The notes: a model not told the origin generated them from the letters alone. Counted from the first letter of the stretch, positions 29,963 through 47,848 are shown. The stretch is 64,000 bases of DNA from an uncultured Gemmatimonadales bacterium (GCA_963701965.1 OY969695.1:3264001-3328000), one strand, 5' to 3'. Numbers and translations are program-made.

Positions 29963-31240
29963 ATGACGCGAGTCGGAGTGCAGCTCGGCGCGCGGCAGGC
30001 GCGAGCCGTCGTGTTGACCGGCTGGCCGCGGCGCAGCGCGCGGGCGGTCGACGTGCCGTTCGATCCGGAGCGACCGGACGAGGCCGTCGCCGCGCTGCGC
30101 GCGCTCCTCGGCAACGTGCGGCGCATGGCGGTCGCTATCGATCTGCAGCTGCTGCGCACGAAGCGCATCACGCTGCCCGCCCTGCCGGCCGCCGAGCGGC
30201 GCAATATCGTCCGCCTCGAGCCGGACCGGTTTTTCGCGGTGCGGGGTGAGGAGATCGTGCCCGCCGTGCGGGCCGAGGATGGGCTCGTGTTCGCGGTCAC
30301 TGCGGCCCGGGTCGAGCGTTGGGTTGCGGCGCTCGAGCAGATCGCCCCGGTCGATGTCGTGGAGCCGACGCCGGTGGCATTGGCGCGGGCGCTGGCCACC
30401 GCCTCAACCACGGATGCCGTCGTATTGTTTGATGGAGCGGATGCCGGCATCGCGGTCGCCGAGATCCGGCAGGGGCGCGTGACGCGAGCCCGGCGCCTGT
30501 TCGGCGGTGCCACGCTCGCGGCCCGTGCGGTGGCCGAGGATCGTATCCCAGGCGATGCCACGCGCCTCTATTGCGATCCGTGGACCGAGGACACGCAAGC
30601 GACCGCCGCCGAGGTGTGGCCCGGCGGGGCGTGCGCGCCCGTGCCGGGGGTCGGCGGTGTGGCCGGCGCCTACGCGGCGGCCTACGGCGCGGCGCTCGCC
30701 ATCGAGAGTCCGCCGCCGGTCGCCGAGACTCTGGTATCGGCCACGCACGGCGCGGCGATTCAGCGGCGCCGTTTCCGCGATATGGCGGTGGCCGTCGCCG
30801 CCTGTGCGACCGCCTGCCTGTTCGCCTTGTCGTCACTCGACAGCCGGCGCGAGCGCGAGGCGCGCGACTTGGAGGCGGCGACGGCCGCGCTGGCGTCGCG
30901 CGCCGCGCCGGCGCTGGCACTGCAGACCGAGCTCGCCAGTCTGGCGCGGCGCGGTACGGCCATGCGGGCCATCGACGCCGAGCGATCCGACCCGCTCCGC
31001 GTGCTGCGCGCGTTGTCGGCCAAGCTGCCACCGGGCGCCTTTGTGCGCGGCGTCCGCGGCACGAGCGCCGGTTGGCAGGTCGATGGCTACGCGCCCAACG
31101 CGTCGGCGGTGATCACCGCGCTGGGCGCCGACGCCGAATTTCGCGACGTGCATTTTCTGGCTGGCACCACCCGGAATCAGATCGGCAACCGTCCGTATGA
31201 AAGCTTCGCCCTCGCTTTTCGATTCGTTCCAGCGCCTTAA
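29963..31240 (+). CDS. gspL: Type II secretion GspL-like / PilN-domain protein
   Basis: First gene of the T2SS operon; cytoplasmic domain, single TM, coiled coil, PilN-like C-terminus ('LSAKLPPGAFV...GYAPNAS'). Confidence 0.65.
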   Translation: MTRVGVQLGARQARAVVLTGWPRRSARAVDVPFDPERPDEAVAALRALLGNVRRMAVAIDLQLLRTKRITLPALPAAERRNIVRLEPDRFFAVRGEEIVPAVRAEDGLVFAVTAARVERWVAALEQIAPVDVVEPTPVALARALATASTTDAVVLFDGADAGIAVAEIRQGRVTRARRLFGGATLAARAVAEDRIPGDATRLYCDPWTEDTQATAAEVWPGGACAPVPGVGGVAGAYAAAYGAALAIESPPPVAETLVSATHGAAIQRRRFRDMAVAVAACATACLFALSSLDSRREREARDLEAATAALASRAAPALALQTELASLARRGTAMRAIDAERSDPLRVLRALSAKLPPGAFVRGVRGTSAGWQVDGYAPNASAVITALGADAEFRDVHFLAGTTRNQIGNRPYESFALAFRFVPAP

Positions 31241-32009
31241 GCCGCGCGAGCAACGCGTGGTTGCCGGCGGGGCGGTCGTCAGCGTGGTGCTGATGATCGC
31301 CGTCTGGGTCGTGCTGCCGTTCGCCCAGCACTGGGCGAGCCGGTCGGCGCAGCTGGCCGAGGCCCGGGCCCATTGGGCGCGCTTGTCGGCGCTCGTCGCC
31401 AACACCGGCCGTCTCAACCGGACCCTCGATCTCGCCCGGCAGTCATCGGGATCCGACCAAGACCGCCTCATCACCGGTGCCACTCCGGCCCTCGCCGCCT
31501 CGGCGCTCCAGAGTCTCGTGCAGCGCTACGCCGGTGAGACGGCCGTTCAACTGGAGCGCGTGGACGCCGCTGGCGAGCCCCATCCCGACAAACCCGGGCT
31601 CCTCGCCATCCCCGTCCAGTTGCAGGCCCGGGGCGATCTCTATGGTCTCGTCGATTTCCTGAGCCGCCTCGAGCACGGCGGCCCCTTGGTGGTCATCGAC
31701 GAGCTCAATGTGAGCGCCGGTCTCGATGCCGGCGACGACGAGGCGCGCGTGACCGCGGTCGCCGACGCGCCGCGGCAATCGCTCATGTGGACCCTGCGAT
31801 TGCACGCCCTCTACGAGGGCAGCGCCGCGACGAACGGGGACACCGGTCGCGCCGACGAGAGCAATGTCGACGCCGGCCGCGCCGGCGCGAGCAACGTCGA
31901 CGTCAGCCCACGCGACGCGAATCCGCCGCAAGTCAGCCAGATCGAGGCCAGCCAACCCGCGCCGCCCGCCGCCACTCAAACGCCGGTCCCGTGGAAGCGC
32001 GCCCAATGA
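31197..32009 (+). CDS. gspM: Type II secretion protein GspM
   Basis: 'LKPREQRVV' followed by a TM; 'ASALQSLV', 'LVDFLSRLE...LVVIDEL'; low-complexity C-terminal tail. Confidence 0.7.
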   Translation: MKASPSLFDSFQRLKPREQRVVAGGAVVSVVLMIAVWVVLPFAQHWASRSAQLAEARAHWARLSALVANTGRLNRTLDLARQSSGSDQDRLITGATPALAASALQSLVQRYAGETAVQLERVDAAGEPHPDKPGLLAIPVQLQARGDLYGLVDFLSRLEHGGPLVVIDELNVSAGLDAGDDEARVTAVADAPRQSLMWTLRLHALYEGSAATNGDTGRADESNVDAGRAGASNVDVSPRDANPPQVSQIEASQPAPPAATQTPVPWKRAQ

Positions 32010-32596
32010 ACGCCGCGCGCCGGTTTTTCAAACGCCCATTGTTCCCGCGAGCGCTGCTCCCGCGCACGCTACACCCGCGCACGCTCGTCACGCGCGCGGC
32101 ATTGACGCACACGCTCTACGGCGCCGCCGCACTTTTCGCGGCCGTTGGCCTGATGCTCCGTCTGACGCCAATCCCCCGGCCCCGCGTGCCTCAACCCGAC
32201 GTCCGCGACGGCGACCTCCCGGTCACCCGCCACGTACAGACGGCCGCCGCCGGCGGCATTACCCCCAACGGATCCGATCCGATCATCAACGCCAACATTT
32301 TCGCGCGCTCCCGCGTCGCACCGATCCGCGCGGGCGCCGTTCCCCACGCCGACCACAAGCCCGCCACCCCCACCGTCCACGAGCCGACCTTTGCGCTCTT
32401 CGGCACGACCATCGGCCCCCGCGGCGCGGTCGCGTTGATCTCGGCCGGCGGCGCTCCAGGCGGCCACGTCCACGCTATCGGCGATATCATAGATGGCGCC
32501 CGCCTCGTCGCCATCACCGACTCGACCGTCACGCTGGAACGCGGCGGCAAGCCGTTCTCGCTGCACGTGCCGCGCATCGTGCGCCAGCAACCGTGA
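32006..32596 (+). CDS. Putative GspC-like T2SS protein
   Basis: Single TM, Pro-rich linker, 'NIF' motif and HR-like domain ('LFGT...ALI...IGDII.GARLVAIT...VTLE.GG'); lies between gspM and gspD with 4-nt overlaps. Confidence 0.6.
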   Translation: MNAARRFFKRPLFPRALLPRTLHPRTLVTRAALTHTLYGAAALFAAVGLMLRLTPIPRPRVPQPDVRDGDLPVTRHVQTAAAGGITPNGSDPIINANIFARSRVAPIRAGAVPHADHKPATPTVHEPTFALFGTTIGPRGAVALISAGGAPGGHVHAIGDIIDGARLVAITDSTVTLERGGKPFSLHVPRIVRQQP

Positions 32597-34422
32597 CGCG
32601 CCGCGAGACGATAGCCACCCTCGCGCTCGCCGCCTTGCTCACCGCGCCGGCGCGCGCGCAGTCCGCCGCGACGGCCACCAACGTCGCGTCCCCCTCGACG
32701 CTGCGGATCAATTTCGTGAACGCCGACCTGAGCGACGTAATCCGGTCGCTCAGCATCGCCCTTGGCGTCAACGTCGTCCTGACCGACGTGCCGGCCCGCC
32801 GCATCACGTTCCAGATCCCGGACCCCGTTCCCGCCACACAAGCCGGCGCCGTCCTGGAGAGCATTTTGGCCGGCCAGGGCTTGGTGCTCGTCCAGAATGG
32901 TCCGGTGGACGAGGTGGTGTCCGACGACAAGCGTCCGACGAGTGGTCCGGTGCGCGTCGGCAAGGCGTTTCCCGATCCGCCGCCCTTGGGCCTCGTCACG
33001 CAGATCGTGCCGCTCGAGTTCATGCGCGCCGACGAAGCGCTCCCGCTCGTGCGTGGCATCGCGTCCAAGCAGGCCCGGGTCGAAGTCGTGCCGCGGTCGA
33101 ACGCGATCCTCATGACCGATCGCGGCGTGTTCGTCGCGCGCTATCTCGACCTGCTCAAACAACTCGACGTCAAGGCCGGGGGCGAGTCGGGGCTCGCGAC
33201 CTTCGTGTACCCCCTCAAGCACGCGAATGCCGGCGAGCTGGCGACGACGCTGGGGTCCGTCTTCGGCGTCACCGTCGTCGCGCCGCAGGCGCCGGCGCGG
33301 GTGCAGGCCCTGGAGGGGCACAACCTGTCGTCGGCGCTCCAAGGGCTGCAGTCCCGCCAGCTCGAGTCCATGCAGCAGCGGCCGCAGATCCCGGTCGAGC
33401 CACCGACGACGGTCACGCCGGTCTCGGCGGACAGCGCGCCGAATCGCGGCCCGAACGGCAACGCGTCGGGTGGCACGACGATCGTGCCGGATCAAGCCAC
33501 CAACTCGCTCATCATTCGGACCTCGCCGCCCAACTATCAGGTGCTCGTGAGCACGATCGAGCAGCTCGACACCCGGCCGGCCCAGGTGCTGTTGGAGGTC
33601 CTGATCGCTGAAGTGACGCTCGACAAGTCGAGCCAGTTCGGCGTGAACTGGAGCTTCTTTTCATCCAAGGGGTTCAGCGGCACGGACAGCACGCGTGGCA
33701 TTTTCGCCGGCCTCGGGCCTCAGATACCGGATTCGGCGCTGCACTCGATCCCCGGCTTGGCGGCGCGGGTGGTGAGCATTGGCTCCGTCAACGTGCGCGC
33801 CGTGCTGCAGGCGGTGGCTTCGCGCACCAACGTACGGGTGTTGTCGGCCCCGCGCGTGATGGCGCTCAACAACGAAAAGGCGCGCATCCTGGTGGGCAGC
33901 CAGGTGCCGTTCACGTCGGCCAGCTTGACGAGCCTGAACTCCATCGTCGATCAGGTGGTTCAGTATCAGAACGTCGGCACGCAGCTCACGATCTTGCCGA
34001 CGATCAATAACGACGGGTATGTCACGTTCCGGCTGCTGCAAGAGGTCAGCGAGCTGTCCTCGCAGACGATCGCGGCCGCCCAGAATTCGCCGATCATCAC
34101 GACGCGGGAGGCCGAGACGAGCGCGATCGTGAAGACGGGGCACAGCGTAGTCATTGGCGGACTGATCGGCGAGATGAAGAGCGACATGGAAACCGGCGTG
34201 CCGATACTCAAGGACATTCCGCTGCTCGGCAACTTGTTCAAGACCAAAACGAAGGATCACACGCGGACCGAATTGGCGATTTTCTTGACGCCGTATGTCG
34301 TCACCAACGACGACCAGTCCGATTCCTTGCTCGACAGCGAAAATCGCAAGCTCGAGATCATGGGTCCGCAGATCGACAGCGTACTCACGGACTCGGCGTC
34401 CCACCGGTACCACAAGCCATGA
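32593..34422 (+). CDS. gspD: Type II secretion secretin GspD
   Basis: GTG start and signal peptide; N0 'INFVNADL'; 'DQATNSLII'; 'QVLLEVLIAEV'; 'GVPILKDIPLLGNLFK'; 'ELAIFLTP'. Confidence 0.92.
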   Translation: MTRRETIATLALAALLTAPARAQSAATATNVASPSTLRINFVNADLSDVIRSLSIALGVNVVLTDVPARRITFQIPDPVPATQAGAVLESILAGQGLVLVQNGPVDEVVSDDKRPTSGPVRVGKAFPDPPPLGLVTQIVPLEFMRADEALPLVRGIASKQARVEVVPRSNAILMTDRGVFVARYLDLLKQLDVKAGGESGLATFVYPLKHANAGELATTLGSVFGVTVVAPQAPARVQALEGHNLSSALQGLQSRQLESMQQRPQIPVEPPTTVTPVSADSAPNRGPNGNASGGTTIVPDQATNSLIIRTSPPNYQVLVSTIEQLDTRPAQVLLEVLIAEVTLDKSSQFGVNWSFFSSKGFSGTDSTRGIFAGLGPQIPDSALHSIPGLAARVVSIGSVNVRAVLQAVASRTNVRVLSAPRVMALNNEKARILVGSQVPFTSASLTSLNSIVDQVVQYQNVGTQLTILPTINNDGYVTFRLLQEVSELSSQTIAAAQNSPIITTREAETSAIVKTGHSVVIGGLIGEMKSDMETGVPILKDIPLLGNLFKTKTKDHTRTELAIFLTPYVVTNDDQSDSLLDSENRKLEIMGPQIDSVLTDSASHRYHKP

Positions 34423-35921
34423 GCAACGATCTCCGCGCCGGCGCCGCCGGCACGCTGGCGCGGCGACTCTCGCCCAAGTATCTCGACGAGCATTGCCTCA
34501 TCCCGCTCTCGATCACGGCCGGCGACGAGCTCCTGGTGGCGGCCGGCGCGCCGCTCGATCCGACGGTGATCGACGAGCTGGCGTGGACGTACGAGCGGCC
34601 GGTGCGCGTGATCGAGGCGCCCGCGGCCGAAATCCACGCCGCCGTGATGTCCGCGCAGTCGGATGCGCCGGTCGAGAGTGACGGGCGGGACGTCGAGCTG
34701 GTGGCCGAGGATGAGGCCAACATCGATGATTTGCGGGCGCTGGCGAATCAGACGCCCGTGATCAAGCTGGTGAACCTCATCGTGCTGGAGGCGCTCCGGG
34801 CCCGGGCGAGCGACATCCACCTCGAGGCCGAAGCCGACGGGCTGCGGGTGCGCTACCGTATAGACGGCGTCCTGCAGGAGATGGCCAATCCTCCCCGGCA
34901 GTATCAGGCCGCCGTGATCAGCCGCGTCAAGATCATGGCCGCGCTCAACATCGCCGAGCGGCGCCAGGCCCAGGACGGGCGCATTCGTCTCCGGCTCTCC
35001 GACCGCGACCTCGATCTTCGTGTCTCGATCACGCCGACGCTGCACGGCGAGAGCGTGGTGCTGCGCATCCTCGATCGTGGCGTCGGCGTTCGAACATTGC
35101 GGGATCTCGGGTTGCCGTCGAGGGTCCTCGACGAGTTCGAGGAGTTGATCCGGCAGCCGCACGGCATCGTGTTGGTAACGGGGCCGACCGGATCGGGGAA
35201 GACCACGACGTTGTACGGGGCCATCGACCGGCTCAACCAGCCGGGTGTCAAGATCGTGACGGTTGAAGATCCGGTAGAGTATCAGATCGCCGGCGTGAGC
35301 CAGATCGCGGTCAACACCAAGACCGGGCTCACCTTCGCGGCGGCCTTGCGCTCCATCCTGCGGCATGACCCCAATGTCATCATGGTGGGCGAGATGCGCG
35401 ATCGGGAGGCCGCGCAGATCGCGATTCAGGCAGCGCTCACCGGGCACCTGGTGTTCTCCACCTTGCACACCAATGATGCGCCGTCCGGGGTGACGCGCAT
35501 GGTGGACATGGGCGTCGAGCCGTATCTCGTCGCCGCCACGGTACTCGGCATCGTGGCGCAGCGGCTCGTGCGCGTCATCTGTGACGATTGCGCCGAGGAA
35601 GTGCAGCCGTCGGACGACGTATTGGCGCGGATTGCGGCAGGGCAGACCACCATCGAGTCGCCCCGGTTTCGGCGGGGGCGCGGGTGTGAGCAGTGTAGCG
35701 GCACCGGCTATCGCGGCCGCACGGGCTTGTACGAGCTCATGCCAATGACGCCCGGGTTGCGCAATGCCGTGGTCCGGCAAGCCCCCTTGTCCGAGCTGCG
35801 CGCGCTGGCGGGCGCGCGGGGCATGGCCTCGTTGCGCGGCGCCGGGTGGGAGAAGGCGTGCCAGGGGATCACCACGGTGGAAGAGATCCTCCGCGCCACC
35901 CGGGACGAAGGGCAAGAGTGA
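34419..35921 (+). CDS. gspE: Type II secretion ATPase GspE
   Basis: 'ASDIHLE', Walker A 'GPTGSGKTT', 'TVEDPVEY', 'GEMRD', 'STLHTND', two CxxC. Confidence 0.95.
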   Translation: MSNDLRAGAAGTLARRLSPKYLDEHCLIPLSITAGDELLVAAGAPLDPTVIDELAWTYERPVRVIEAPAAEIHAAVMSAQSDAPVESDGRDVELVAEDEANIDDLRALANQTPVIKLVNLIVLEALRARASDIHLEAEADGLRVRYRIDGVLQEMANPPRQYQAAVISRVKIMAALNIAERRQAQDGRIRLRLSDRDLDLRVSITPTLHGESVVLRILDRGVGVRTLRDLGLPSRVLDEFEELIRQPHGIVLVTGPTGSGKTTTLYGAIDRLNQPGVKIVTVEDPVEYQIAGVSQIAVNTKTGLTFAAALRSILRHDPNVIMVGEMRDREAAQIAIQAALTGHLVFSTLHTNDAPSGVTRMVDMGVEPYLVAATVLGIVAQRLVRVICDDCAEEVQPSDDVLARIAAGQTTIESPRFRRGRGCEQCSGTGYRGRTGLYELMPMTPGLRNAVVRQAPLSELRALAGARGMASLRGAGWEKACQGITTVEEILRATRDEGQE

Positions 35922-37120
35922 GCCCGGCCGGCCAGTTCCGCTATCGGGCGTCGACGCCCGACGGCCAGATCGTCGAGGGGGTCATGCACGCCGCCTCGCG
36001 GGAATCGGTGCTGGACGGCCTCCGCCGGCAACAGCTCTATCCGGTGCGTGTCGACGACGCGCCGGTCCCGGCCGCGTCGTCGGCCGGCCGGCGTCTGAGC
36101 CGCCACGCCGCCGTGGTCCTCTGGACGCGCAACACCGCGACCTTGTTGGCCGCCGGTGTGCCGCTCGACCGCGCGCTGGGATTCACGGCGCAGCACGCGG
36201 GACACGAGGGCCTCGCCGAGGCGGTCCGCGACGTGCGGCGCGCGGTGCAGGGAGGCGCGACGCTGGCCAATGCCTTCAACCGACAACCGCGCTACTTCGA
36301 CGCGCTCTTCTCGGTGATGGTCTCGGCTGGCGAAGCCAGTGGGGCGCTCAATGCCGTGTTCGCGCAACTGTCGGAGCAGTTGGAGGAGAGCGCGGCGCTC
36401 ACTTCCCAGGTGCGCTCGACGCTGCTCTACCCGGCCTTGATGGCGGTCGTGGCGGTCGTCGGCCTCGTCGTGCTCCTCGGTTTCGTGATCCCGCGGTTCG
36501 CGACGGTATTGGCCGATATGGGCGGTACGCTCCCGTTCAGCACGCGGCTCTTGCTCGCGATCAGCCATGTGCTGACCGCGTGGTGGTGGTTGTGGCTCGC
36601 GCTGGTCGTCGGCGCCATCGCCGCCGTGCCGCGCGTGCTGGCCCGTCCCGGGGTCCTCCTCCGTTGGCATCGCGCCCGGCTCGGCTGGCCGGTCGTCGGC
36701 GACATCGAGCGGAAGTACTCGACGGCGCGCGTGGCGCGCACGCTCGGCCTCCTCCTCAAGAGCGGCGTCTCGGCGCTGCCCGCGCTCAAGCTCGCGCGGG
36801 CCTCGGCCACCAACCTCGTCGTCCGCGAGGGCATCGATCGCGCGGCCACCGCGCTGGCGGAAGGGAGCGCGCTGGCGCCCGCGTTGACGGGTACGCTCCC
36901 GCCGCTCGCCGTGCAGATGTTGGCGGTCGGAGAAGAAAGCGGGCGACTCGATGAGCTGTGCCTCAAAGTCGCCGCCAGCTACGACGTCGAAGTCCGCCAG
37001 GCGATGCGCACGGCCGTCACGCTGATCGAACCCGTGTTGATCCTCACGTTCGGCGCCCTGGTCGGCTTCGTGGCGCTCGCCATGCTGCAGGCGATCTACG
37101 GGATCGATCTCAAAGGTTAG
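35918..37120 (+). CDS. gspF: Type II secretion inner-membrane platform GspF
   Basis: Two T2SSF repeats ('AGVPL', 'GEASGAL', 'LLYP', 'GEESGRL', 'LIEP'). Confidence 0.93.
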   Translation: MSPAGQFRYRASTPDGQIVEGVMHAASRESVLDGLRRQQLYPVRVDDAPVPAASSAGRRLSRHAAVVLWTRNTATLLAAGVPLDRALGFTAQHAGHEGLAEAVRDVRRAVQGGATLANAFNRQPRYFDALFSVMVSAGEASGALNAVFAQLSEQLEESAALTSQVRSTLLYPALMAVVAVVGLVVLLGFVIPRFATVLADMGGTLPFSTRLLLAISHVLTAWWWLWLALVVGAIAAVPRVLARPGVLLRWHRARLGWPVVGDIERKYSTARVARTLGLLLKSGVSALPALKLARASATNLVVREGIDRAATALAEGSALAPALTGTLPPLAVQMLAVGEESGRLDELCLKVAASYDVEVRQAMRTAVTLIEPVLILTFGALVGFVALAMLQAIYGIDLKG

Positions 37121-37176: not shown

Positions 37177-37306
37177 CTCGCCTCACGATCTCGCCTCACG
37201 ATCTCGCCTCACGATCTCGCCTCACGATCTCGCCTCACGATCTCGCCTCACGATCTCGCCTCACGATCTCGCCTCACGATCTCGCCTCACGACCTCGCCT
37301 AGCGAT
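37177..37306. repeat. 13-bp tandem repeat (CTCGCCTCACGAT), 9 copies plus one degenerate copy
   Basis: Counted directly: eight perfect units 37177-37280, a ninth with one mismatch, and a tenth degenerate unit overlapping the gspK stop. Confidence 0.95.
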
Positions 37307-38123
37307 CCCGCTCTTCCCAGCTTTGCAGCGACATCGTGCCGCCGAGGACAAAGTAGACGGCTTGAATCTCGTGCGTGAGCGGCGAGCCCCGTTGCCACCC
37401 GCGACTCACGATCATGATCCGCGACGGCGCGATCGTCAGCAGGCTGCCATCCAGTGACGCGACGCCCGGCGCCCGGAACGCATCGACCGATGCGATCACC
37501 TCGCCCGCCTCACGCCGGGCGACGATCGCCCCGGCCTTGCCCGGCCCGATGCCGGGGATCGACGCCAACACCGCTTCCGGCGCCGAGTTCAGGTTGACGA
37601 GCCCATCGCTCCCGACCGTGACGTATGGGGCGACCGCCAGCGCCAGCGCGTCGTCGGATCCCGGCACGCGCGCCAGCTCGCCGTACCGCGTGATAGGCGT
37701 CCGCCGGAGCCCATCGACAATGGTGCTGGCCCGCCCGGCCGGCACGAACCGCGTGAACAGCGCGCGCAATGCCGCCGAATCGTGGGCCAGGTCGAGCCGG
37801 GAGTTGAGGTCGACGACCGCGACCGCATACTGCCCGTTGCCCGACGAGCCATCGGCGGGTCGGCGGCCGAGCGTGTCCAAACGTCGTGCCCGGGTCGCCA
37901 GGTCTTCCGGCTCGGGCGCCGAGGCGACGAGCGTCTCCAGCGCCGAGCTGGTCGCCAGAATCCCACTCTCGGCCGCGTAGCGCGCCACCGCCCGCGCTTT
38001 GAGCGTGGCGACGATGCCCGACTCCGTGCGCGCGCGCGTCAGGAGATCGGTGACCACCAATCCCAGGATCACCAGGATCCAGAGCACGAAGATGAGCGCC
38101 ACTCCGCGCCGCGGCCGCGTCAC
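37299..38123 (-). CDS. gspK: Type II secretion minor pseudopilin GspK
   Basis: 'RRGVALIFVLWIL', 'YAAESG', 'VNLNSAPEAVLASIPGIG' HhH-like motif. Confidence 0.85.
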   Translation of the reverse strand: MTRPRRGVALIFVLWILVILGLVVTDLLTRARTESGIVATLKARAVARYAAESGILATSSALETLVASAPEPEDLATRARRLDTLGRRPADGSSGNGQYAVAVVDLNSRLDLAHDSAALRALFTRFVPAGRASTIVDGLRRTPITRYGELARVPGSDDALALAVAPYVTVGSDGLVNLNSAPEAVLASIPGIGPGKAGAIVARREAGEVIASVDAFRAPGVASLDGSLLTIAPSRIMIVSRGWQRGSPLTHEIQAVYFVLGGTMSLQSWEERDR

Positions 38124-38476
38124 CACCGCTCCCCGCCGTTGCGATCGATACGCGCCAACCGGTCCAGATCGAATCGCGCCCCACCGGGGAGGATCACGGA
38201 GACCGTCACTGTCTCGAACCCCTTGACCGCCGCCGGCCGGCGCGTGATCTGCCGGTGGAACCCGCCGGGCAACACTTCGCCCGGCGGCCCCCGCAACGTC
38301 GTGCTCCCCATCTTGGCCAACTCCATCCCATCCTCGGCGTAGGCCACGGCCTCCGACCACGTGCGGGCGTTGTCGACCACCTGGTGGCTCATGTGCGTCA
38401 GCTCGAGCGCGCCGAGCCCCACGAGGCTCAACACCACGAGCGCGACCATGACCTCGAGCAGTATGAGTCCCCTCAT
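38120..38476 (-). CDS. gspI: Minor pseudopilin, GspI-like
   Basis: Class III signal 'MRG/LILLEVMVAL'; about 118 aa; 4-nt overlaps on both sides. Confidence 0.7.
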   Translation of the reverse strand: MRGLILLEVMVALVVLSLVGLGALELTHMSHQVVDNARTWSEAVAYAEDGMELAKMGSTTLRGPPGEVLPGGFHRQITRRPAAVKGFETVTVSVILPGGARFDLDRLARIDRNGGERW

Positions 38477-39033
38477 CGCGCGTGCGCGGGCAAGGCGACA
38501 TGCAGCGGCAGTCCCGACAGGCGATCTCCATTCCAGAACGTGATGAGCGCCGCGGCCGGCATGAACGTCGTATCGTGCCACGCATTCACCCACGACTGCC
38601 CGTCGGGCGCCAGCAGCCGCACCGACCACCGCGTCACCTCCGGCACCGCGAACGCCACCGTTGCGGGCCTCGCGTGACCAATGGCGATCGCCGTTACGCC
38701 GAGCGCTCCACGTCCGGGCGCGACGGTGAACTGCCAGTCGTAGTCCGGGTCCAATGGCGAGACCCCACTCGACGCGATGAACGACAACGTATCGTGCGAC
38801 AGGTAGACCCCGCCGGGGATCGACGGCGGGCGCGGCGCGCGCGCATTGCGGAGCGCGTCACGGAGCATCTCACGCGCCGCGCGCGACCCCTGGACGGTGC
38901 GCAACCCGGACGTCAGTCGCGCGCGGGCGTCGATGGCCGCGCTCGACATGGCGTAGGCGACGGAGACGACGATCGCCGTGAGCACGAGCGCCACCATGAC
39001 TTCGAGCAGCGTAAAACCCTGACGCGACCGCAT
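38473..39033 (-). CDS. gspJ: Minor pseudopilin, GspJ-like
   Basis: 'RQG/FTLLEVMVAL', 'MLRDALRNA', 'WVNAW...MPAA' fit the GspJ pattern. Confidence 0.75.
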   Translation of the reverse strand: MRSRQGFTLLEVMVALVLTAIVVSVAYAMSSAAIDARARLTSGLRTVQGSRAAREMLRDALRNARAPRPPSIPGGVYLSHDTLSFIASSGVSPLDPDYDWQFTVAPGRGALGVTAIAIGHARPATVAFAVPEVTRWSVRLLAPDGQSWVNAWHDTTFMPAAALITFWNGDRLSGLPLHVALPAHAR

Positions 39034-39140
39034 ATGATGAGATGGCTGGCGGATGTAACAGTTGTACCACGCGCCCCGCCACGGGAACGTGACAGGCTCC
39101 TTGCCGATCCACCGACGGACCGTGACACGGCGGACTGTTC

Positions 39141-40994
39141 ATGAGACTCATGGGAAAGATGGTATTGGTCATGGCCTGGCTCCGCGCGCTCGGCCTGGCC
39201 GCTGGCTTGCTCCGCCCGGCTCCGATGATGTCCGTCCAGCGCGCGTTCGAGGGCGACCTGGACGCGTTGCTCGCCGCGTTCGACACCCTCGGCGCCCGGG
39301 TCACGTCCGGCAGGACCCTGGAAGCGCAACAGGCCTTTCGGCGAGCCCGCACGTCGTACAAGCGTGTAGAGGGTCTGCTCGGCTACTACGCCCCGGAAGC
39401 GATCGTTGCGCTGCAGGGCCCGTTGGAATCCGAAGGCGAGGACGACGTGCTGCCGCGCCCCTTCAACATGCCCGGCGGATTCCCCCAGATCGAAGAGGCC
39501 ATCTTCCCGCGCCTGGCCGACTCGTCGCGCAACATGGTGTTGGCCCGGCTCCGGGCCATGCGGGAGCGCGTGGCCCTGCTCCGGTCCGAGACCGGGTCAC
39601 TGGAGATGGAGGAGGCGGCGGTGTTCGACGCCGCGCGCGAGGAGATCGCGCGCGTCAGCACCCTCGACATCGCCGGGTTCGACTCCGACCGTCAGGACGA
39701 CGCGCTGCTCGACGCCGCGGCTGCTCTCGACGGCGTGCGCGCGACGCTGGTGGCGCCGGCGGAGCCGGAAAGCGACCGCGCCGCGGCCGACCGGCGCCGC
39801 GCCGCTGACGCGCTGCTCGCCGCCGCCGACTACCTGCGCCAGCATCCGGCGTTCGAGCGCATGGACCGATTCACGTTTCTCACCCACTACAGTCAGCCGG
39901 CCGCGCACGCGGTGGCCGCTTTGCGGTCTTCGCGGTCGGTCCCCCGCCGCCCCATCGGGCGCGTCTGGCGCGACGGCGCCGCGTCGGTGTACGACAGCGC
40001 GGCGTTCAATCCCTTCGCCTACGCGCCCCGCTTCGCCTCGATCGCGGAGATGGACACGTCCGTCTTCGGGTTGGGCGCGCGCCTCTTCGCCGACCCGCAG
40101 CTCTCCGGGCCCAAGGTGCGCGCCTGCGCCGGGTGCCATCTGCCGACGCGCGCGTTTACCGACGGCCTCCCGAAGCGGACCCCGCTCGTGCCGGGGATCC
40201 CGCGCCCCGACGGCGCGCCGCCGGCGCGGCACACGCCGACGTTACTCAACGCCGGCCTCCAACCCGCGTTGTTCGACGATGAGCGGGCGCGGTCGTTGGA
40301 ACAACAGATCGCGTTCGTGTTGGCCGACCCCGATGAGATGCACAGCTCGACCGATACCGCGGTGGCGCGCGTGGGAGCCGACTCCAGCTACCGCGCCGCA
40401 TTCGCGCGTGCGTTCGGCACGACGCCAGAGCACGCTGTTACGCCCATCACGCTCCGCGTCGCGCTGGCGACGTATGTCCGCTCGTTGACGGCGCTCAACG
40501 CGCCGTTCGACCGGGCCGTGCGCGGGGACACGGCAGCGTTGTCCCAGGAAGCCAAGCGCGGATTCACCGTATTCATGGGCAAGGGCCGCTGCGGCACCTG
40601 TCATTTTGCCCCGCTCTTCAACGGGACCGAACCGCCGCTCTACCGGACGACGGATCCCGAGATCATCGGCGTCCCGGAGCGACCGGTCTTGCATCAGGGC
40701 CGGCTCGACACGGACCCGGGGCGCGGGCTCATCGACCGCGTGGGGAGTCATTGCTTTGCTTTCAAGGTGCCGACGGTGCGGAACGCCGCCCTGACCGCGC
40801 CGTACATGCACAACGGCGCCTTCCGCACGCTCGACGACGTGGTCGCGTTTTACAACGCCGGGGGCGGCACGGGCATTGGGATCGATCTGCCGTATCAGAC
40901 CCTGTTTGACCAACCCCTCAACTTGACGCGGCGCGAGCAAGGCGATCTCATTGCGTTCCTGCGCGCCCTCACTGACACTTCCAGTCGCCTATGA
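39141..40994 (+). CDS. Di-heme cytochrome c peroxidase/MauG-family protein with N-terminal imelysin-like helical domain
   Basis: Two heme motifs CAGCH and CGTCH; 'LGARLFADPQLS', 'RHTPTLLN', 'FKVPTVRN...TAPYMHNG'; ~300-aa N-terminal extension with 'ARTSYKRVE...GFPQIEE'. Confidence 0.88.
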   Translation: MRLMGKMVLVMAWLRALGLAAGLLRPAPMMSVQRAFEGDLDALLAAFDTLGARVTSGRTLEAQQAFRRARTSYKRVEGLLGYYAPEAIVALQGPLESEGEDDVLPRPFNMPGGFPQIEEAIFPRLADSSRNMVLARLRAMRERVALLRSETGSLEMEEAAVFDAAREEIARVSTLDIAGFDSDRQDDALLDAAAALDGVRATLVAPAEPESDRAAADRRRAADALLAAADYLRQHPAFERMDRFTFLTHYSQPAAHAVAALRSSRSVPRRPIGRVWRDGAASVYDSAAFNPFAYAPRFASIAEMDTSVFGLGARLFADPQLSGPKVRACAGCHLPTRAFTDGLPKRTPLVPGIPRPDGAPPARHTPTLLNAGLQPALFDDERARSLEQQIAFVLADPDEMHSSTDTAVARVGADSSYRAAFARAFGTTPEHAVTPITLRVALATYVRSLTALNAPFDRAVRGDTAALSQEAKRGFTVFMGKGRCGTCHFAPLFNGTEPPLYRTTDPEIIGVPERPVLHQGRLDTDPGRGLIDRVGSHCFAFKVPTVRNAALTAPYMHNGAFRTLDDVVAFYNAGGGTGIGIDLPYQTLFDQPLNLTRREQGDLIAFLRALTDTSSRL

Positions 40995-41425
40995 CCCGCC
41001 GTCCTGGATTCACGCTGATCGAGATGCTCGTCGTGATCATCGTCATCGGCTTGCTCGCCGCGCTCGTCGGACCGCGCATTCTGGGGCGCGTGTCGGAAGC
41101 GAAGAGCGCGACGGCCAAGACGCAGATCGAGCTCCTGGGCACGGCGCTGGATAATTATCGGTTGGACAACGGATCGTACCCCACGAGCGAGCAGGGATTG
41201 GGCGCGCTCCAGGCCAAGCCCACGCGCGATCCCGTGCCGCTCGACTGGCGGGGTCCGTACCTCAAGCGCGAAGTCCCGAACGATCCGTGGGGGCGCCCGT
41301 ACGTCTACAAGAGCCCCGGGGAACACAACCCGACCAGCTATGACATCTCGACGCTGGGACGCGACGGGCAGCCGGGCGGCACCAATGAAGACGCCGACAT
41401 CATGAACTGGAAGGCGCAGCAGTAG
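40991..41425 (+). CDS. gspG: Type II secretion major pseudopilin GspG
   Basis: 'G/FTLIEMLVVIIVIGLLA', 'ALDNYRLDNGSYPT..QGL.AL', 'GPYL...DPWG.PY.Y.SPG', 'DGQPGG'. Confidence 0.95.
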   Translation: MTRRPGFTLIEMLVVIIVIGLLAALVGPRILGRVSEAKSATAKTQIELLGTALDNYRLDNGSYPTSEQGLGALQAKPTRDPVPLDWRGPYLKREVPNDPWGRPYVYKSPGEHNPTSYDISTLGRDGQPGGTNEDADIMNWKAQQ

Positions 41426-41819
41426 GCGGCCGTCCGACCGTACAGGTCAGCGGGTCGATCGCGAAGGCGCGACCCGCGGCGGCGCTCCGGACATCGAACG
41501 CACACGTCCCCGCCGGCGACACCAGCAACGTGAGCGCTTCGCGCGCCAGCGGCGCCACGCGTCCGCTGGCCAGCGCGAGCTCGAGCGGCGAGCCCGCGCC
41601 TTCCAGGTGCCAGGCGCCGGTGGGCTCGATGCGCACGTAGATCAATTCGCCGCGGCGGGCGGCCGCGTCGCGCGCGTGGTCGATCACGGTTTGTAACGAC
41701 GGCGCGCCCAGACGCGAGCGCACGAGCGCCGGCAGCACGATGGCCGCCGCCAGCCCCAGGATGGCGATGACCACGAGCATCTCGATCAGCGTGTAGCCGC
41801 GCCGCATCCCGTGTCGCAT
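41400..41819 (-). CDS. gspH: Minor pseudopilin, GspH/FimT-like
   Basis: 'RRG/YTLIEMLVVIAILGL', 'ARDAAARRG'. Confidence 0.65.
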   Translation of the reverse strand: MRHGMRRGYTLIEMLVVIAILGLAAAIVLPALVRSRLGAPSLQTVIDHARDAAARRGELIYVRIEPTGAWHLEGAGSPLELALASGRVAPLAREALTLLVSPAGTCAFDVRSAAAGRAFAIDPLTCTVGRPPTAAPSSS

Positions 41820-42084
41820 GACAAACCAACGTATCGCGTGCCACGACGATCCGCAAACGCGCGCTGGCCGCCCGCGGCGCGGTCATCGTTACGCGATGTG
41901 TCACTATTGGTGTGCGTCGATTGTGACGTACGCCGTTTGTGGTGCTCGCCACCTGTGGCGGCCCGCGCGTTATGGTTGGGCTCAGTCACCACATCGTGCC
42001 AATGGTACATCGCGAACGTGACAAGTCCGCGATCAACGGCCACTACTCTCCGGCGTGAGTAAAACCATCCAGCGGAGGACAGGC

Positions 42085-43977
42085 ATGAAAGCAGTGAGTC
42101 TACGGAGAACGATCGTGGGCTGTGCGATCGGCGCCGGGTATGCGGTTGGCATGCCGCTGATCGCCCAGGCCCAGATCGGCGGGAACCAGAACGACCGCAA
42201 CACGGCGACGCCGATCAAGCACATCGTCTACATCATCGGCGAGAATCGCACCTTCGACCATATCTTCGCGACCTACGTGCCGCCGAAGGGGTCGACGGTG
42301 TGGAATCTCCTCTCCGAGGGGATCATCAAGGCCGATGGCACGCCCGGCCCGAACTTCTCCAAGGCGCTGCAGTGGAAGGCGACGGACACCGACAAGTTCT
42401 CGGTGCACCCGCACAAGACCGACCCGTACACCACGCTCCCCCCGGTCCACGTCGGGGGCCCCACCAACGCTCCGTTCGCGACCGTCGCCGCGGCCAAGGC
42501 CGTCGAGCCTTCGATGTGGTCGGAGAGCTATTTCAAGCTGACGACCGGCGGCAACGGGCAAACGAACACGATCTACGATTCGCGTTTCCCGACGAACCTG
42601 CCTGATGGTCCGTTCGACATCAGCCGTTACACGTCCTACGATTCGTACACCTCGAGCCCCGTGCACCGGTTCTACCAGATGTGGCAGCAGCTCGACTGCG
42701 ACATCACGCGGGCGACGGCGCAGAATCCGAGCGGCTGCCAGAGCGACCTGTTCCCCTGGGTCGAGACGCAGTTCGGCGCCGGCTCCAACGGCGCGCCGCC
42801 CCCGGCTGGCTTCAACAACCAGACCACGGGCGAAGGCTCGACGGCCATGGGCTTCTTCAACGTCCAGGCCGGTGATGCGCCGTATTTCACGTCGCTCGCC
42901 AACGAGTACGGCATGAGCGACAACTTCCACCAGGCGATCCAGGGTGGCACGGGCGCCAACCACATCGCCCTCGGCTTCGGCACGCTGATCTACTACGCCG
43001 ACTCGAACGGCAACGCGGTCACCCCGCCGTCCAACCAGATCGAGAACCCGGATCCGATGCCCGGGACGAATGACTGGTACACGCAGGATGGGTACGGCGG
43101 CGGCTCGTACGTGAACTGCGCCGACTCGACGAAGCCCGGCATTGGCGCGGTGCGCGATTACCTCAAGTCGCTGCCGTACAAGACGCTCAAGCACGACTGC
43201 AAAGACGGCGCGTACTACCTGGTCAACAACTACAACCCTGGCTACTTCGGCACGGGCGTCGCCGCGCCGCTGGCCGACACGCTGTTCACGATCCCGCCGA
43301 CGCGCCAGCGCAACATCGGCCTCCTGCTGTCCGAGCACCACATCTCGTGGAAGTACTATGGCGAAGGCTGGGCCAATGGCACGGAGACGGGCGAGAACAG
43401 CACGTACTGCAACATCTGCAATCCGTTCCTGTATTCGACGCAGATCATGACCAACCCCAAGCTGCGCGCGAACCTGCAGGACGTATCGGATCTCTATGAC
43501 GACATCAGCAAGGGCACGCTCCCGGCGGTCTCGATCGTGAAGCCCGATGGCTTCATGGACGGCCACCCGGCGTCGTCGAAGTGGGACCTGTACGAGGCGT
43601 TCACCAAGAAGATTGTGCAGATGATCCAGGCGAATCCGGCGCTCTTTGCCGAGACCGCGATCATCATCACGCAGGACGAGGGCGGTGGGTATTGGGATTC
43701 CGGCTACGTCCAGCCGATCGACTTCTTCGGCGACGGCACCCGGATGCCCCTCATCGTGGTGTCGCCGTTCAGCAAGGGCGTTGGCGTCGTGCACTCGTAT
43801 GGCGATCACGTGTCGTTCGACAAGTTCGTCGAAGCGAACTGGGGCCTGCAGACGATCACGCCGCAGACCCGCGACAACCTGCCGAACCCGATCGTGAACG
43901 CGAGCAACCCGTATGCTCCCGTGAACGCTCCCGCGATCACGGATTTCATGGACCTGTTCAGATTTCCGGCGCACTAG
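42085..43977 (+). CDS. Secreted phosphoesterase (AcpA acid phosphatase / phospholipase C family), copy 1
   Basis: GGAGG RBS; signal peptide with RR; 'IKHIVYIIGENRTFDH', 'VHRFYQ', 'GGTGANH', 'DGHP', 'DEGGG', 'GTRMP'. Confidence 0.9.
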   Translation: MKAVSLRRTIVGCAIGAGYAVGMPLIAQAQIGGNQNDRNTATPIKHIVYIIGENRTFDHIFATYVPPKGSTVWNLLSEGIIKADGTPGPNFSKALQWKATDTDKFSVHPHKTDPYTTLPPVHVGGPTNAPFATVAAAKAVEPSMWSESYFKLTTGGNGQTNTIYDSRFPTNLPDGPFDISRYTSYDSYTSSPVHRFYQMWQQLDCDITRATAQNPSGCQSDLFPWVETQFGAGSNGAPPPAGFNNQTTGEGSTAMGFFNVQAGDAPYFTSLANEYGMSDNFHQAIQGGTGANHIALGFGTLIYYADSNGNAVTPPSNQIENPDPMPGTNDWYTQDGYGGGSYVNCADSTKPGIGAVRDYLKSLPYKTLKHDCKDGAYYLVNNYNPGYFGTGVAAPLADTLFTIPPTRQRNIGLLLSEHHISWKYYGEGWANGTETGENSTYCNICNPFLYSTQIMTNPKLRANLQDVSDLYDDISKGTLPAVSIVKPDGFMDGHPASSKWDLYEAFTKKIVQMIQANPALFAETAIIITQDEGGGYWDSGYVQPIDFFGDGTRMPLIVVSPFSKGVGVVHSYGDHVSFDKFVEANWGLQTITPQTRDNLPNPIVNASNPYAPVNAPAITDFMDLFRFPAH

Positions 43978-44484: not shown

Positions 44485-46368
44485 ATGCATGGAGTCGGAT
44501 TTCGCAGGACCATCGCAGGCTGCGCGATCGGCGCTGGCTGCGCGTTCGGCCTGCCAATGCAGGCCCACGCCCAGAACCAGAACGATCGCAACACCGCCAC
44601 GCCGATCAAACACGTGATCTACATCATCGGCGAGAACCGCACGTTCGACCACCTCTTCGCGACGTTTGTCCCGAAGCCCGGACAGACCGTCTGGAACCTC
44701 CTGTCCGAGGGCATCATCAATGCCGACGGCACCGCCGGCCCGAATTTCTCCTCAGCGCGGCAGTGGAAGGCGGTCGACACCGACGTCTTCTCGGTCCACC
44801 CGCACAAGACCGACCCGTACCACACCCTGCCGCCCATCAACACCGACGGCGCCCCGACGACCGCGTTCTTCACCACGATCGCACAAGCCAAGTCGATCGA
44901 ACCCGGGCTCTGGTCCGGGAGCTACGTCAAGCTGACGACCGGCGGCACGGGCCAGGCCGGGGGTGTCGAAGACAAGCACTTCCCGCAGAACCTCGCGGAT
45001 GGCCCGTTCCAGATCACCCGCTTCGTGCCGTACGATTCATACACATCGAGCCCGGTCCACCGCTTCTTTCAGATGTGGCAGCAAATCGACTGCGACATCA
45101 CCCGCGCCACGCCGAAGATCCCGAGCGGCTGCCAGAACGACCTCTTCCCCTGGGTCGAGACCCAGGAGGGCGCCGGCTCCAACGGCGCGCCGCCGCCGGC
45201 CGGCATGAACAACCAGACCACGGGTGAAGGGTCGACGGCGATGGGCTTCTTCAACGTCCAGGCGGGCGACCAGCCGTACTTCGAGCAACTGGCGACGCAG
45301 TTCGCCATGAACGACAACTATCACCAGGCGATCCAGGGTGGCACGGGCGCCAACCACATCGCGTTGGGCTTCGGCACGCTCATCTACTTCGCCGACTCGA
45401 ACGGCAATCCCGCCACGCCGCCCAAGAATCAGATCGAGAACCCGAACCCGCTGGCCGGCACGAACGACTGGTACGTGCAGGATGGGTTCGGCGGCGGCTC
45501 GTACGTGAACTGCGCCGACACCACGCAGCCGGGCGTCGCCTCGGTCAAGGACTACCTCGAGTCCCTGCCGTACAAGACGCTCGAGCACGACTGCAAGGAT
45601 GGCGCGTACTACCTGGTCAACAACTACAACCCCGGCTTCCTCGGCACCGGCCAGCCGGCGCCGCTCGGCGACACGCTTTTCACGATCCCGCCGACCCGGC
45701 AGAAGAACATCGGTCTGCTCCTGACCGAGAACAAGATCTCGTGGCACTACTACGGGGAAGGCTGGGCCAACGGCACGGAGACGGGCGAGGCGAGCACGTA
45801 TTGCAACATCTGCAATCCGTTCCTGTACTCGACGCAGATCATGACCAACCCGAAGCTCCGCGCCAATCTGAAAGACGTCACCGATCTCTACAACGACATC
45901 ACCAACAGCACGTTGCCCGCCGTCTCCATCGTCAAGCCGGACGGTCTCCTCGACGGCCACCCGGCGTCGTCGAAGTGGGACCTCTTCGAGTCGTTCACCA
46001 AGAAGATCGTGCAGATGGTCCAGGCCAACCCGTCGCTGTTCGCCGAGACGGCCATCATGATCACGAACGATGAGGGCGGTGGGTACTACGATTCGGGCTA
46101 CATCCAGCCCGTCGACTTCTTCGGCGATGGCACCCGCATCCCGATGATCGTCGTGTCGCCGTTCTCCCAAGGCGTCGGCGTCGTGCACTCGTACGGCGAC
46201 CACGTGTCGTTCGACAAGTTCGTGGAAGCCAACTGGGGCCTGCAGACGATCACGGGTCAGACTCGCGACAACCTGCCCAACCCGATCGTGAACGCCAACA
46301 ACCCGTACGCGCCGCTCAACGCTCCGGCGTTGTCCGATCTTATGGACATGTTCAAATTCCCGCACTAG
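44485..46368 (+). CDS. Secreted phosphoesterase (AcpA acid phosphatase / phospholipase C family), copy 2
   Basis: GGAGG RBS; same motifs as copy 1 and colinear with it over the whole length. Confidence 0.9.
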   Translation: MHGVGFRRTIAGCAIGAGCAFGLPMQAHAQNQNDRNTATPIKHVIYIIGENRTFDHLFATFVPKPGQTVWNLLSEGIINADGTAGPNFSSARQWKAVDTDVFSVHPHKTDPYHTLPPINTDGAPTTAFFTTIAQAKSIEPGLWSGSYVKLTTGGTGQAGGVEDKHFPQNLADGPFQITRFVPYDSYTSSPVHRFFQMWQQIDCDITRATPKIPSGCQNDLFPWVETQEGAGSNGAPPPAGMNNQTTGEGSTAMGFFNVQAGDQPYFEQLATQFAMNDNYHQAIQGGTGANHIALGFGTLIYFADSNGNPATPPKNQIENPNPLAGTNDWYVQDGFGGGSYVNCADTTQPGVASVKDYLESLPYKTLEHDCKDGAYYLVNNYNPGFLGTGQPAPLGDTLFTIPPTRQKNIGLLLTENKISWHYYGEGWANGTETGEASTYCNICNPFLYSTQIMTNPKLRANLKDVTDLYNDITNSTLPAVSIVKPDGLLDGHPASSKWDLFESFTKKIVQMVQANPSLFAETAIMITNDEGGGYYDSGYIQPVDFFGDGTRIPMIVVSPFSQGVGVVHSYGDHVSFDKFVEANWGLQTITGQTRDNLPNPIVNANNPYAPLNAPALSDLMDMFKFPH

Positions 46369-46483: not shown

Positions 46484-47260
46484 CTACAAACCGAACCGGT
46501 GGCCGAGTATGACTTTGTAGATCACGTGATCCGTGGCCCGCGTCCAACCGTTGCCCACTCCGGCGTTGAACTCCCACCGGGGACCCAGGTCGAGGTTGAC
46601 GACTCCGAACAGCTGGTGCTCCTGCTCCTGATACGGATCGAATTGTTGAATCGATCCCCACGACCCGTAGTACTCGGCGCCCAGATTGATCTTACGCGTG
46701 ATGTCGTAGGTCACGGTCGCCGCGGGCGAGAACTCGAGCCCCTTGGTCACGCTCGGCCCGTGCCACGAGCGCTCCAGCGCGGGATTGATCGCGAGATACC
46801 ACGGTCCCAGCGTCTTGTCGACGATCGGCCGGATCTCCCACGTCCACGTGTCGGTCGAGACCTGCGGGCGTTGATAGCCGATCTCGGTCGACAGACTCAC
46901 GCCCACCGGCCAGCCCCAGGACGCGGGCACGCGCACGCGGGGCCGAATATGGTCGCCGGCCCATTGCCAACCGTTGCCGTCCCGCGCGTACGTGAAGATG
47001 TAAAATCCGGTCTCGAGCCAGCTCGTCCAGCCGTGCGTGATCTCGACGGTCTCGTGTTCGGCGTCCTCCGTCGGCCACAGTCCGTCCTGCACCGTGCGCC
47101 GGCCGTCGCCCGTGAAGTTGCTGTGCAACTCGACCATCGTCACCGCGGGCGCCACGGTCTCCGAGGCGTAGACCTGGATCTCGTAGTTGTCTTGCGCCTC
47201 GACGCGAGCCGCCGCCGCCGCGCACCACACGGCGATCCCGACGGCCCACCGCGGGGTCAC
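46484..47260 (-). CDS. Putative outer-membrane beta-barrel protein
   Basis: Signal peptide ending 'VEA-QDNYEIQVY'; amphipathic beta strands; C-terminus 'GHRFGL'; GTG start overlaps the cytochrome c stop. Confidence 0.65.
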   Translation of the reverse strand: MTPRWAVGIAVWCAAAAARVEAQDNYEIQVYASETVAPAVTMVELHSNFTGDGRRTVQDGLWPTEDAEHETVEITHGWTSWLETGFYIFTYARDGNGWQWAGDHIRPRVRVPASWGWPVGVSLSTEIGYQRPQVSTDTWTWEIRPIVDKTLGPWYLAINPALERSWHGPSVTKGLEFSPAATVTYDITRKINLGAEYYGSWGSIQQFDPYQEQEHQLFGVVNLDLGPRWEFNAGVGNGWTRATDHVIYKVILGHRFGL

Positions 47261-47802: not shown

Positions 47803-47848
47803 GCCCGGCAATATAGCCGTCATGGCCCCGAGCCACTTCCCCTGATGG

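Follow-up and report, generated by a model that had tools for sequence, protein, structure and literature searches.

A phosphatase-linked fusion of an EfeO-fold domain with a MauG-like di-heme domain and its possible role in phosphatase maturation

Introduction

Secreted phosphatases drive the turnover of organic phosphorus in soils and waters. In canonical bacterial cytochrome c peroxidases (CcPs), the electron-transfer heme has Met as its axial ligand, and a Trp lies between the two hemes. PhoX and the purple acid phosphatases have ferric centres. In Pseudomonas aeruginosa, a second type II secretion system (T2SS), Hxc, is tied to a phosphate-starvation phosphatase, LapA, an arrangement that resembles the gene cluster described here; we know of no EfeO-type or di-heme accessory protein of Hxc/LapA.

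Pairs of a MauG-like enzyme and a phosphatase are already in print. In Flavobacterium johnsoniae, the CCP_MauG gene Fjoh_2477 and the gene of a secreted PhoX-like phosphatase, Fjoh_2478, form an operon, and the MauG-like gene is strongly induced by phosphate depletion (PMC8115612, PMC8812569). Fjoh_2477 was present in the whole-cell proteome and absent from the exoproteome (PMC8115612, Table 1). In Burkholderia thailandensis, BthA (6nx0, 6v59) always adjoins a putative phosphatase, and its function is called an open question; it has a Tyr-His heme and no inter-heme Trp, yet forms a bis-Fe(IV) state (PMC6405878). Imelysin-peroxidase fusions are in print as well. EfeO/EfeM and imelysin/IPPA proteins are usually paired with a heme peroxidase (PMC3143127, PMC9174327), and a 2011 paper on imelysin notes a small group of fusions with a peroxidase-like domain (PMC3143127, section 11), which may be the family described here.

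The locus analysed here encodes a fusion of an EfeO/imelysin-fold domain with a CCP_MauG di-heme domain. It resembles Fjoh_2477/Fjoh_2478. In the Flavobacterium loci L079 and L092, a PhoX-like lipoprotein gene precedes this fusion, so that Fjoh_2477 probably belongs to the same family. It differs in that its partner is AcpA-type, duplicated and located beside a T2SS; the consulted sections of the F. johnsoniae papers mention no EfeO domain for Fjoh_2477. The protein shares with BthA the Tyr-His heme and the missing inter-heme Trp, whereas BthA, judged by the structural match, is without an EfeO-fold domain and has a single partner type. MauG (TIGR03791) and MbnH (TIGR04039; 6e1c) are the solved sequences closest to the fusion protein and share with it the di-heme fold, the axial Tyr and the distal Gln/Glu. 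A literature search in running text found no EfeO/MauG fusion linked to several phosphatase folds; relevant material may be in Fig. 7 of PMC3143127 and in Suppl. Fig. 1 of PMC6405878. In the same scope, neither the charge-reversed pocket nor the module of AcpA-type phosphatase and T2SS described below was found. The fusion family is real and uncharacterised.

The locus and the protein family

The sequence analysed (the window) is a 64,000-nt stretch from an uncultured Gemmatimonadales bacterium (GCA_963701965.1 OY969695.1:3264001-3328000). The fusion gene is surrounded by a type II secretion cluster and two PF04185 phosphoesterase genes (Table 1). ORF calls bear out the preliminary description in that the TGA of the fusion gene shares an ATGA with the ATG of gspG at 40991-40994, and the gene is divergent from gspJ, whose start lies at 39033 (minus strand), with 107 nt between them. 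Such ATGA overlaps are commonplace in the cluster and also occur at gspD/gspE and gspJ/gspI. Translational coupling of the fusion gene to gspG is a possibility suggested by the overlap. The AF2 model of the fusion protein has a pLDDT of 89.5 and a pTM of 0.90.

Table 1. Positions of the fusion gene, its domains and neighbouring features in the window
Feature	Coordinates	Strand	Remarks
gspL-M-C-D-E-F-like genes, second type II secretion cluster	29963..37120	+	likely exporter of the phosphoesterases
gspJ-gspI-gspK-like minor pseudopilins	37299..39033	-	divergent from the fusion gene
Three GT(A/G)ACA half-sites	39055..39127	+	at 39055, 39089 and 39122; putatively Pho-box-like
EfeO/imelysin-fold + CCP_MauG di-heme fusion gene	39141..40994	+	617 aa; hydrophobic N-terminal leader
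EfeO/imelysin-fold domain	39228..39944	+	residues 30-268; pocket R70, K74, E77, E118, R171, D181, D191
GFPQIEE motif	39477..39497	+	residues 113-119; position of GxHxxE in EfeO
Di-heme domain	39984..40991	+	CAGCH 329-333, CGTCH 484-488; distal pocket Q389/V393/E399; D379; Y571
gspG major pseudopilin	40991..41425	+	likely co-transcribed with the fusion gene here; not a conserved partner
gspH-like minor pseudopilin	41400..41819	-	
AcpA-type phosphoesterase 1	42055..43977	+	PF04185; true start probably 42085; likely client
AcpA-type phosphoesterase 2	44485..46368	+	79% identical to phosphoesterase 1; likely client

Homologs were collected in a scan of GTDB, from which the best 80 of at least 601 stretches were used, mostly from Bacteroidota and Gemmatimonadota. 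A profile of the N-terminal domain matched 595 clusters (50% identity) at E up to 1e-30. The set of 91 full-length members omits three broken or partial GTDB genes (L075, L102, L116), the broken L034, two split pieces of G023 and one duplicate. Residue conservation was counted in an alignment of 92 rows, one of which is a duplicate. In an ESM Atlas search every match scored under 0.9. Open frames of 1195 aa (G074) and 1053 aa (G152) were considered as phosphatase-enzyme fusions and rejected as high-GC open frames.

The di-heme domain is MauG-like

The C-terminal domain belongs to the CCP_MauG superfamily. CCP_MauG (PF03150) spans residues 310-464 with an E of 3e-37 and 129 bits, against a cut-off of 25.6; two CxxCH motifs are present, and the fold matches BccP, MbnH, MauG and BthA at Z 25-28. 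In the alignment with MauG, Y571 corresponds to Tyr294, Q389 to Gln103, E399 to Glu113, V393 to Pro107 and D379 to Trp93. In other words, the residues of the MauG His/Tyr heme and of its distal Gln/Glu pair are present, and Tyr571 and Glu399 are unchanged in all 92 rows. The enzyme is not a canonical CcP, which agrees with the comparison to MauG and MbnH made at the outset: the axial residue is Tyr571 rather than Met, and the position of the inter-heme Trp is mostly occupied by other residues (Tyr in 50 of 92 rows, Ala in 15, Trp in 8 and Asp in 5).

The protein is also distinct from MauG and MbnH proper. It reaches 168.9 of 443.85 bits with the MauG equivalog (TIGR03791) and 159.4 of 362.85 bits with MbnH (TIGR04039). 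Unlike in MauG, Trp93 is replaced by Asp in the window protein and Pro107 by Val in 91/92 rows, and no mau genes were found among the scanned window genes or the neighbour clusters. The family neighbourhoods contained no mbn genes, the context being phosphatase rather than methanobactin or copper. Unlike BthA, the family retains the MauG calcium-site residues Thr552/Pro554.

The N-terminal domain keeps the EfeO fold with a remodelled pocket

The N-terminal domain had been described as imelysin/EfeO-like, and both structure and profile comparisons uphold this. Residues about 19-271 of the model matched five members of the superfamily (EfeO, IPPA, EfeM, ICMP and IrpA) at Z 18.6-20.6. The best match was EfeO 7wgu (Z 20.6, rmsd 4.1, 233 aligned), followed by IPPA 3pf0 (Z 20.3) and EfeM 7q1g (Z 20.1), while the best unrelated bundle reached Z 12 only. 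The domain has the two four-helix-bundle fold of the imelysin/EfeO superfamily. Further evidence comes from sequence profiles. The NCBIfam EfeO model (NF041757) matched residues 39-216 of the window protein at E 4.5e-8, with 35.5 of 270 bits and hence below its cut-off, and it matched 34 of 91 family members at E up to 0.001. Conversely, a profile built from 91 N-terminal domains found EfeO, EfeM and Algp7 at E about 1e-10.

The residues that serve metal binding in EfeM are largely changed. Profile alignment with the EfeM sites listed in PMC9174327 retains E93, E129 and E189 as E77, E118 and D181, while the ligands E90 and E179 become K74 and R171. In the same comparison (sites from PMC9174327), D103 becomes N/Q92, D107 is gone, and H126 is replaced by Gln family-wide and by P115 in the window. 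IPPA likewise has a Pro in place of the motif His (PMC3143127). GFPQIEE aligns with GFHRLE of EfeO, and 79/92 rows have the family version GxQxxE. The ligand changes run family-wide in the 92 rows, and R70, K74 and R171 are each present in 88-90 of them. The HxxE and GEEDRY motifs, the acidic site IV ligands and the EfeU/EfeB context of EfeO/EfeM proper are missing; the domain has GxQxxE/GxPxxE, G(I/L)xGFD, K74 and R171 instead. No EfeU permease gene lies nearby, and the context is phosphate rather than iron uptake. The N-terminal domain thus keeps the EfeO fold with an iron site remodelled towards basic residues. Canonical iron binding by it is doubtful because the EfeM metal ligands are largely lost.

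What might such a pocket bind? Replacement of the acids by Lys/Arg would suit an anion. One possibility is that the enzyme acts on iron-bound or reduced/organic phosphorus, with phosphate bound by the N-terminal domain and the phosphatase fed with the product, an activity from which any phosphatase fold would benefit. However, no transporter genes are conserved in the neighbourhood clusters of the family, and the dedicated enzyme copies per phosphatase described below would be unexplained, so we regard this as quite unlikely.

Linkage to gspG is local

The preliminary description also took conserved linkage to gspG as a test of its reading and proposed that the enzyme might modify or metal-load a pilus component. 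The ccp-gspG order was found in six other close loci (L127, L130, L131, L149, G174 and G235). An in-frame ATG overlapping the stop of the fusion gene is possible in two of them (L130 and L131), and the other four have no ATGA overlap. Among the best 80 of at least 601 GTDB loci, covering up to 6 kb per side and often less, none had gsp genes near the fusion, and in the metagenome set gsp genes occurred at 5/80 loci, all of them relatives of at least 63% identity. In sister genomes the fusion gene lies beside a phosphoesterase; direct adjacency was seen in G001, G002, G003, G005, L128 and L129. The linkage to gspG is local and limited to close relatives. Modification of GspG by the enzyme, or work of the enzyme within the T2SS, is therefore very improbable, even with the ATGA overlap and a T2SS that also adjoins the Bradyrhizobium module described next.

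A plasmid of Bradyrhizobium sp. 186 (L280/L282, 41920-57993) carries a full T2SS followed by separate genes for EfeM, a CCP_MauG protein and a long phosphoesterase. This EfeM has an intact HxxE motif, the CCP_MauG gene is distantly related to the fusion, and the phosphoesterase is 45% identical to the window type. The module, a single record, suggests that the same parts were assembled twice. The Bradyrhizobium EfeM also has three longer homologs that contain CCP_MauG parts (P0272-P0274). These were rejected as fusions; they look like read-through or frameshift joins and indicate adjacency only.

Two minor features of the secretion genes were also observed. Another gspE-G-F-D cluster lies elsewhere in the genome (G000:C1:2929500-2938400). 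A short tandem repeat occurs at about 37180-37300 of the window, between gspF and gspK, and shows up as a 13-residue unit that recurs in a spurious ORF.

Linkage to phosphatases is conserved across genomes

The conserved neighbours of the fusion gene are phosphatases, and this linkage, which the preliminary description had likewise set as a test, proved strongly conserved. A phosphatase is encoded near 80 of the 91 full-length members: within two genes in 78, three genes on in the window, and at L095 under a doubtful hand label. The partners are PhoX-like in 39 cases, AcpA-type in 28 and calcineurin-like/purple-acid type in 13. The other 11 members have no phosphatase within two genes, several of them being on short contigs.

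Similar results were obtained in two samples that were not picked by top score, overlap slightly with the GTDB set and contain kin that are not independent. In Gemmatimonadaceae, the N-terminal domain was found in 38 of 251 genomes with a phosphatase homolog nearby in 34, two of which rest on weak matches (95 and 112 bits); of the other four, three are cut by contig ends and one has none. The Pedobacter foliorum family gave 31 matches in 121 genomes, of which 28 adjoin a phosphatase, two are cut and one is degenerate.

The linkage was also checked in reverse. The long phosphoesterase of the window type has the fusion next to it in 7/8 genomes, the eighth being cut by a contig end. The fusion adjoins the PhoX-like type in 13/15 (one cut, one alone) and the short AcpA type in 5/5. 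Homologs of the window phosphoesterases without a fusion neighbour occur in two Paraburkholderia records and in Methylocella (45-57% identity set), solitary short AcpA genes occur in G009, G017 and G041, and a PhoX-like gene is solitary in G159. The need of these phosphatases for the fusion is not universal.

A FastTree tree of 91 proteins, with local support only and a midpoint root, requires at least six changes of partner fold, and AcpA-type partners occupy two separate regions of it. The heme and pocket residues are constant irrespective of the partner fold. Six genomes or loci (G001, G003, G005, G152, L049 and G385) have two copies of the fusion, each next to its own phosphatase.

Could the enzyme simply protect its neighbours? 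An ordinary peroxidase of the phosphate-starvation regulon could shield metal-containing phosphatases from peroxide without direct contact. This would suit the independence from partner fold and a fusion gene that has its own conserved promoter element, and efficient H2O2 turnover is known from BthA, likewise a Tyr-ligated enzyme with a phosphatase link (PMC6405878). A single copy should then do, yet genomes retain one per phosphatase; moreover, the constant EfeO-fold domain and the split Bradyrhizobium module would be left unexplained, and the enzyme has neither the Met nor the Trp of a canonical CcP. Such a guard function seems rather improbable.

In G152, two tandem cassettes (L247; G152:C8:52500-59100) consist of a calcineurin-like phosphatase gene, fusion copy 1, fusion copy 2 and an AcpA-type phosphatase gene.

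The partner phosphatases

The window phosphoesterases are of the AcpA/PLC type. They match PF04185 at 157 bits and 2d1g at E 4e-16, with the EN...DE metal ligands and the hydroxyl nucleophile in place; the motifs are ENRTFDH, GGTGANH, DGHP and DEGGG. The HHQPF of short AcpA relatives, with its two active-site His, is replaced by YCNICNPF in both. The CxxC, retained in Paraburkholderia and Bradyrhizobium homologs, could possibly form a disulfide or mark an altered substrate site. An iron centre is not an established feature of AcpA-type enzymes: no metal was detected in SapM by ICP-MS or EPR (PMC6635428), and NPC4 was unaffected by EDTA (PMC9837106).

The PhoX-like partners form cluster c1, in which five members gave weak Pfam PhoX matches; hhalign placed the cluster at 93% with a clear PhoX, and its profile had no PDB match. 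F. johnsoniae PhoX expressed alone in P. putida showed no activity, for which the authors suggest poor folding or localisation as possible causes (PMC8812569). A pattern search, run without a positive control, found a Tat motif in 0/79 partner ORFs, five of which were without a true start.

One reading of this association is a MauG-like modification, in which enzymatic oxidation of a Trp, Tyr or Cys in the partner yields a protein-derived cofactor or crosslink. The MauG-type axial Tyr and distal Gln/Glu, the dedicated copy per partner, and the CxxC of the window phosphoesterases at the place of two active-site His would fit, and the idea has been put forward for Flavobacterium PhoX (PMC8812569) and for BthA/PhosA (PMC6405878). 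However, one residue-specific chemistry is hard to picture across three unrelated folds and at least six switches during which the key residues of the enzyme stayed fixed, and homologs of the CxxC type exist without the enzyme. Residue modification is unlikely on this evidence.

Several further observations concern partners and other phosphatase-related genes. PhoX partners sorted by a T9SS (L096, L097, L101, L104 and L124) have a small protein of cluster c8 encoded between or beside the two genes, and four scanned c8 proteins contain leucine-rich repeats. A purple-acid-like phosphatase gene at G000:C1:4375436-4376410 has TGTCAC-type sites upstream, and its C-terminal translation looks frameshifted. 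Convergent with phosphoesterase 2, the window region 46484-47823 (minus strand) contains a mono-heme cytochrome c gene and then a gene for a 268-aa exported protein without a Pfam match.

Promoter repeats suggest phosphate control

The last two of the GT(A/G)ACA half-sites upstream of the fusion gene are spaced by 33 nt in the window and in 12/12 close loci, several of them near-identical, and the pair is conserved regardless of gspJ or gspG adjacency. A GT(A/G)ACA pair at 11, 22 or 33 nt has a single occurrence in the genome. Among Bacteroidota, 14/50 partner genes but 6/122 control genes are preceded by T(A/T/C)ACA repeats with a spacing of 11, 22 or 33 nt. We take direct repeats phased at 11 nt to be a mark of PhoB-type boxes. 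No matching half-site pair was seen before pstS of this genome, and an E. coli-type Pho box pattern gave 7 matches in the window versus 12 expected and was not enriched. Half-site clusters number 17 genome-wide versus 3.4 at random, and most point to no clear gene. These repeats suggest that the fusion gene and its partner are under phosphate-starvation control, with binding of PhoB as a prediction.

A model for the function of the fusion protein

How might the fusion protein serve phosphatases of unrelated folds? The proposal that the enzyme modifies or metal-loads the phosphoesterases stands as far as the link to phosphatases goes, and of its two branches residue modification is less likely than work on the metal site because the partners span three unrelated folds. 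A ferric centre, as in PhoX and purple acid phosphatases, is the sole nameable feature that unrelated folds could share. We predict that the fusion is a periplasmic maturation factor of phosphate starvation, which would build or restore the oxidised metal centre of its exported partner phosphatase with the help of peroxide. We place the probability of this reading somewhat below even, at about 0.45, because the metal of AcpA-type enzymes is unsettled and the N-terminal domain is without canonical iron ligands.

The maturation model would operate as follows. Phosphate shortage would induce the fusion gene and its partner, as the promoter repeats suggest and as was measured in the probable Flavobacterium counterpart. 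Both proteins would be exported by Sec, which is proposed because Tat motifs are missing, so that the metal site of the partner would form outside the cytoplasm. H2O2 would react at the heme served by Gln389/Glu399. The second oxidising equivalent would be kept at the His/Tyr571 heme, by analogy with MauG and BthA; both steps are suggested by the residues. The EfeO-like domain, with its remodelled pocket, may be a docking site for the partner or carry a metal-phosphate species. In this genus, the adjacent T2SS would likely export the matured phosphoesterases, with gspG probably sharing a transcript with the fusion rather than being a substrate.

A bolder form of the maturation model is a fold-blind metal loader driven by peroxide. 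Once phosphatases of the three unrelated folds had been exported by Sec, it would assemble or mend their ferric centres, and phosphate in the charge-reversed EfeO pocket would gate this activity. We consider this form possible, if doubtful. Were it true, the AcpA-type enzymes described here would contain iron, and many phosphatases of soils and waters would be inactive unless a helper were present. The maturation model itself, if true, would account for the failed heterologous expression of PhoX and would extend the reach of MauG-type high-valent chemistry to phosphate scavenging. The occurrence of one enzyme family beside PhoX, AcpA-type and purple-acid partners means that partner swaps can separate metal-site work from residue modification. 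A complex prediction for a Pedobacter fusion/AcpA pair, folded without alignments or controls, scored 0.00 and gives no verdict either way.

Related di-heme genes outside the family

Another di-heme/phosphatase pair was found at L274 (G020:C3:338520-341400), where a different, shorter CCP_MauG gene is divergent from an AcpA-type phosphoesterase gene. CCP_MauG proteins of 617 aa from the Roseobacter group were considered as family members and rejected as a separate family, their N-terminal domain having no match to the EfeO-like profile. On plasmids of Leisingera (L284:4785-9582) and Roseibium (L283:4790-7218), a gene for a 617-aa CCP_MauG protein is divergent from mntR, and in Leisingera it stands first before a phosphonate/phosphite ABC transporter.
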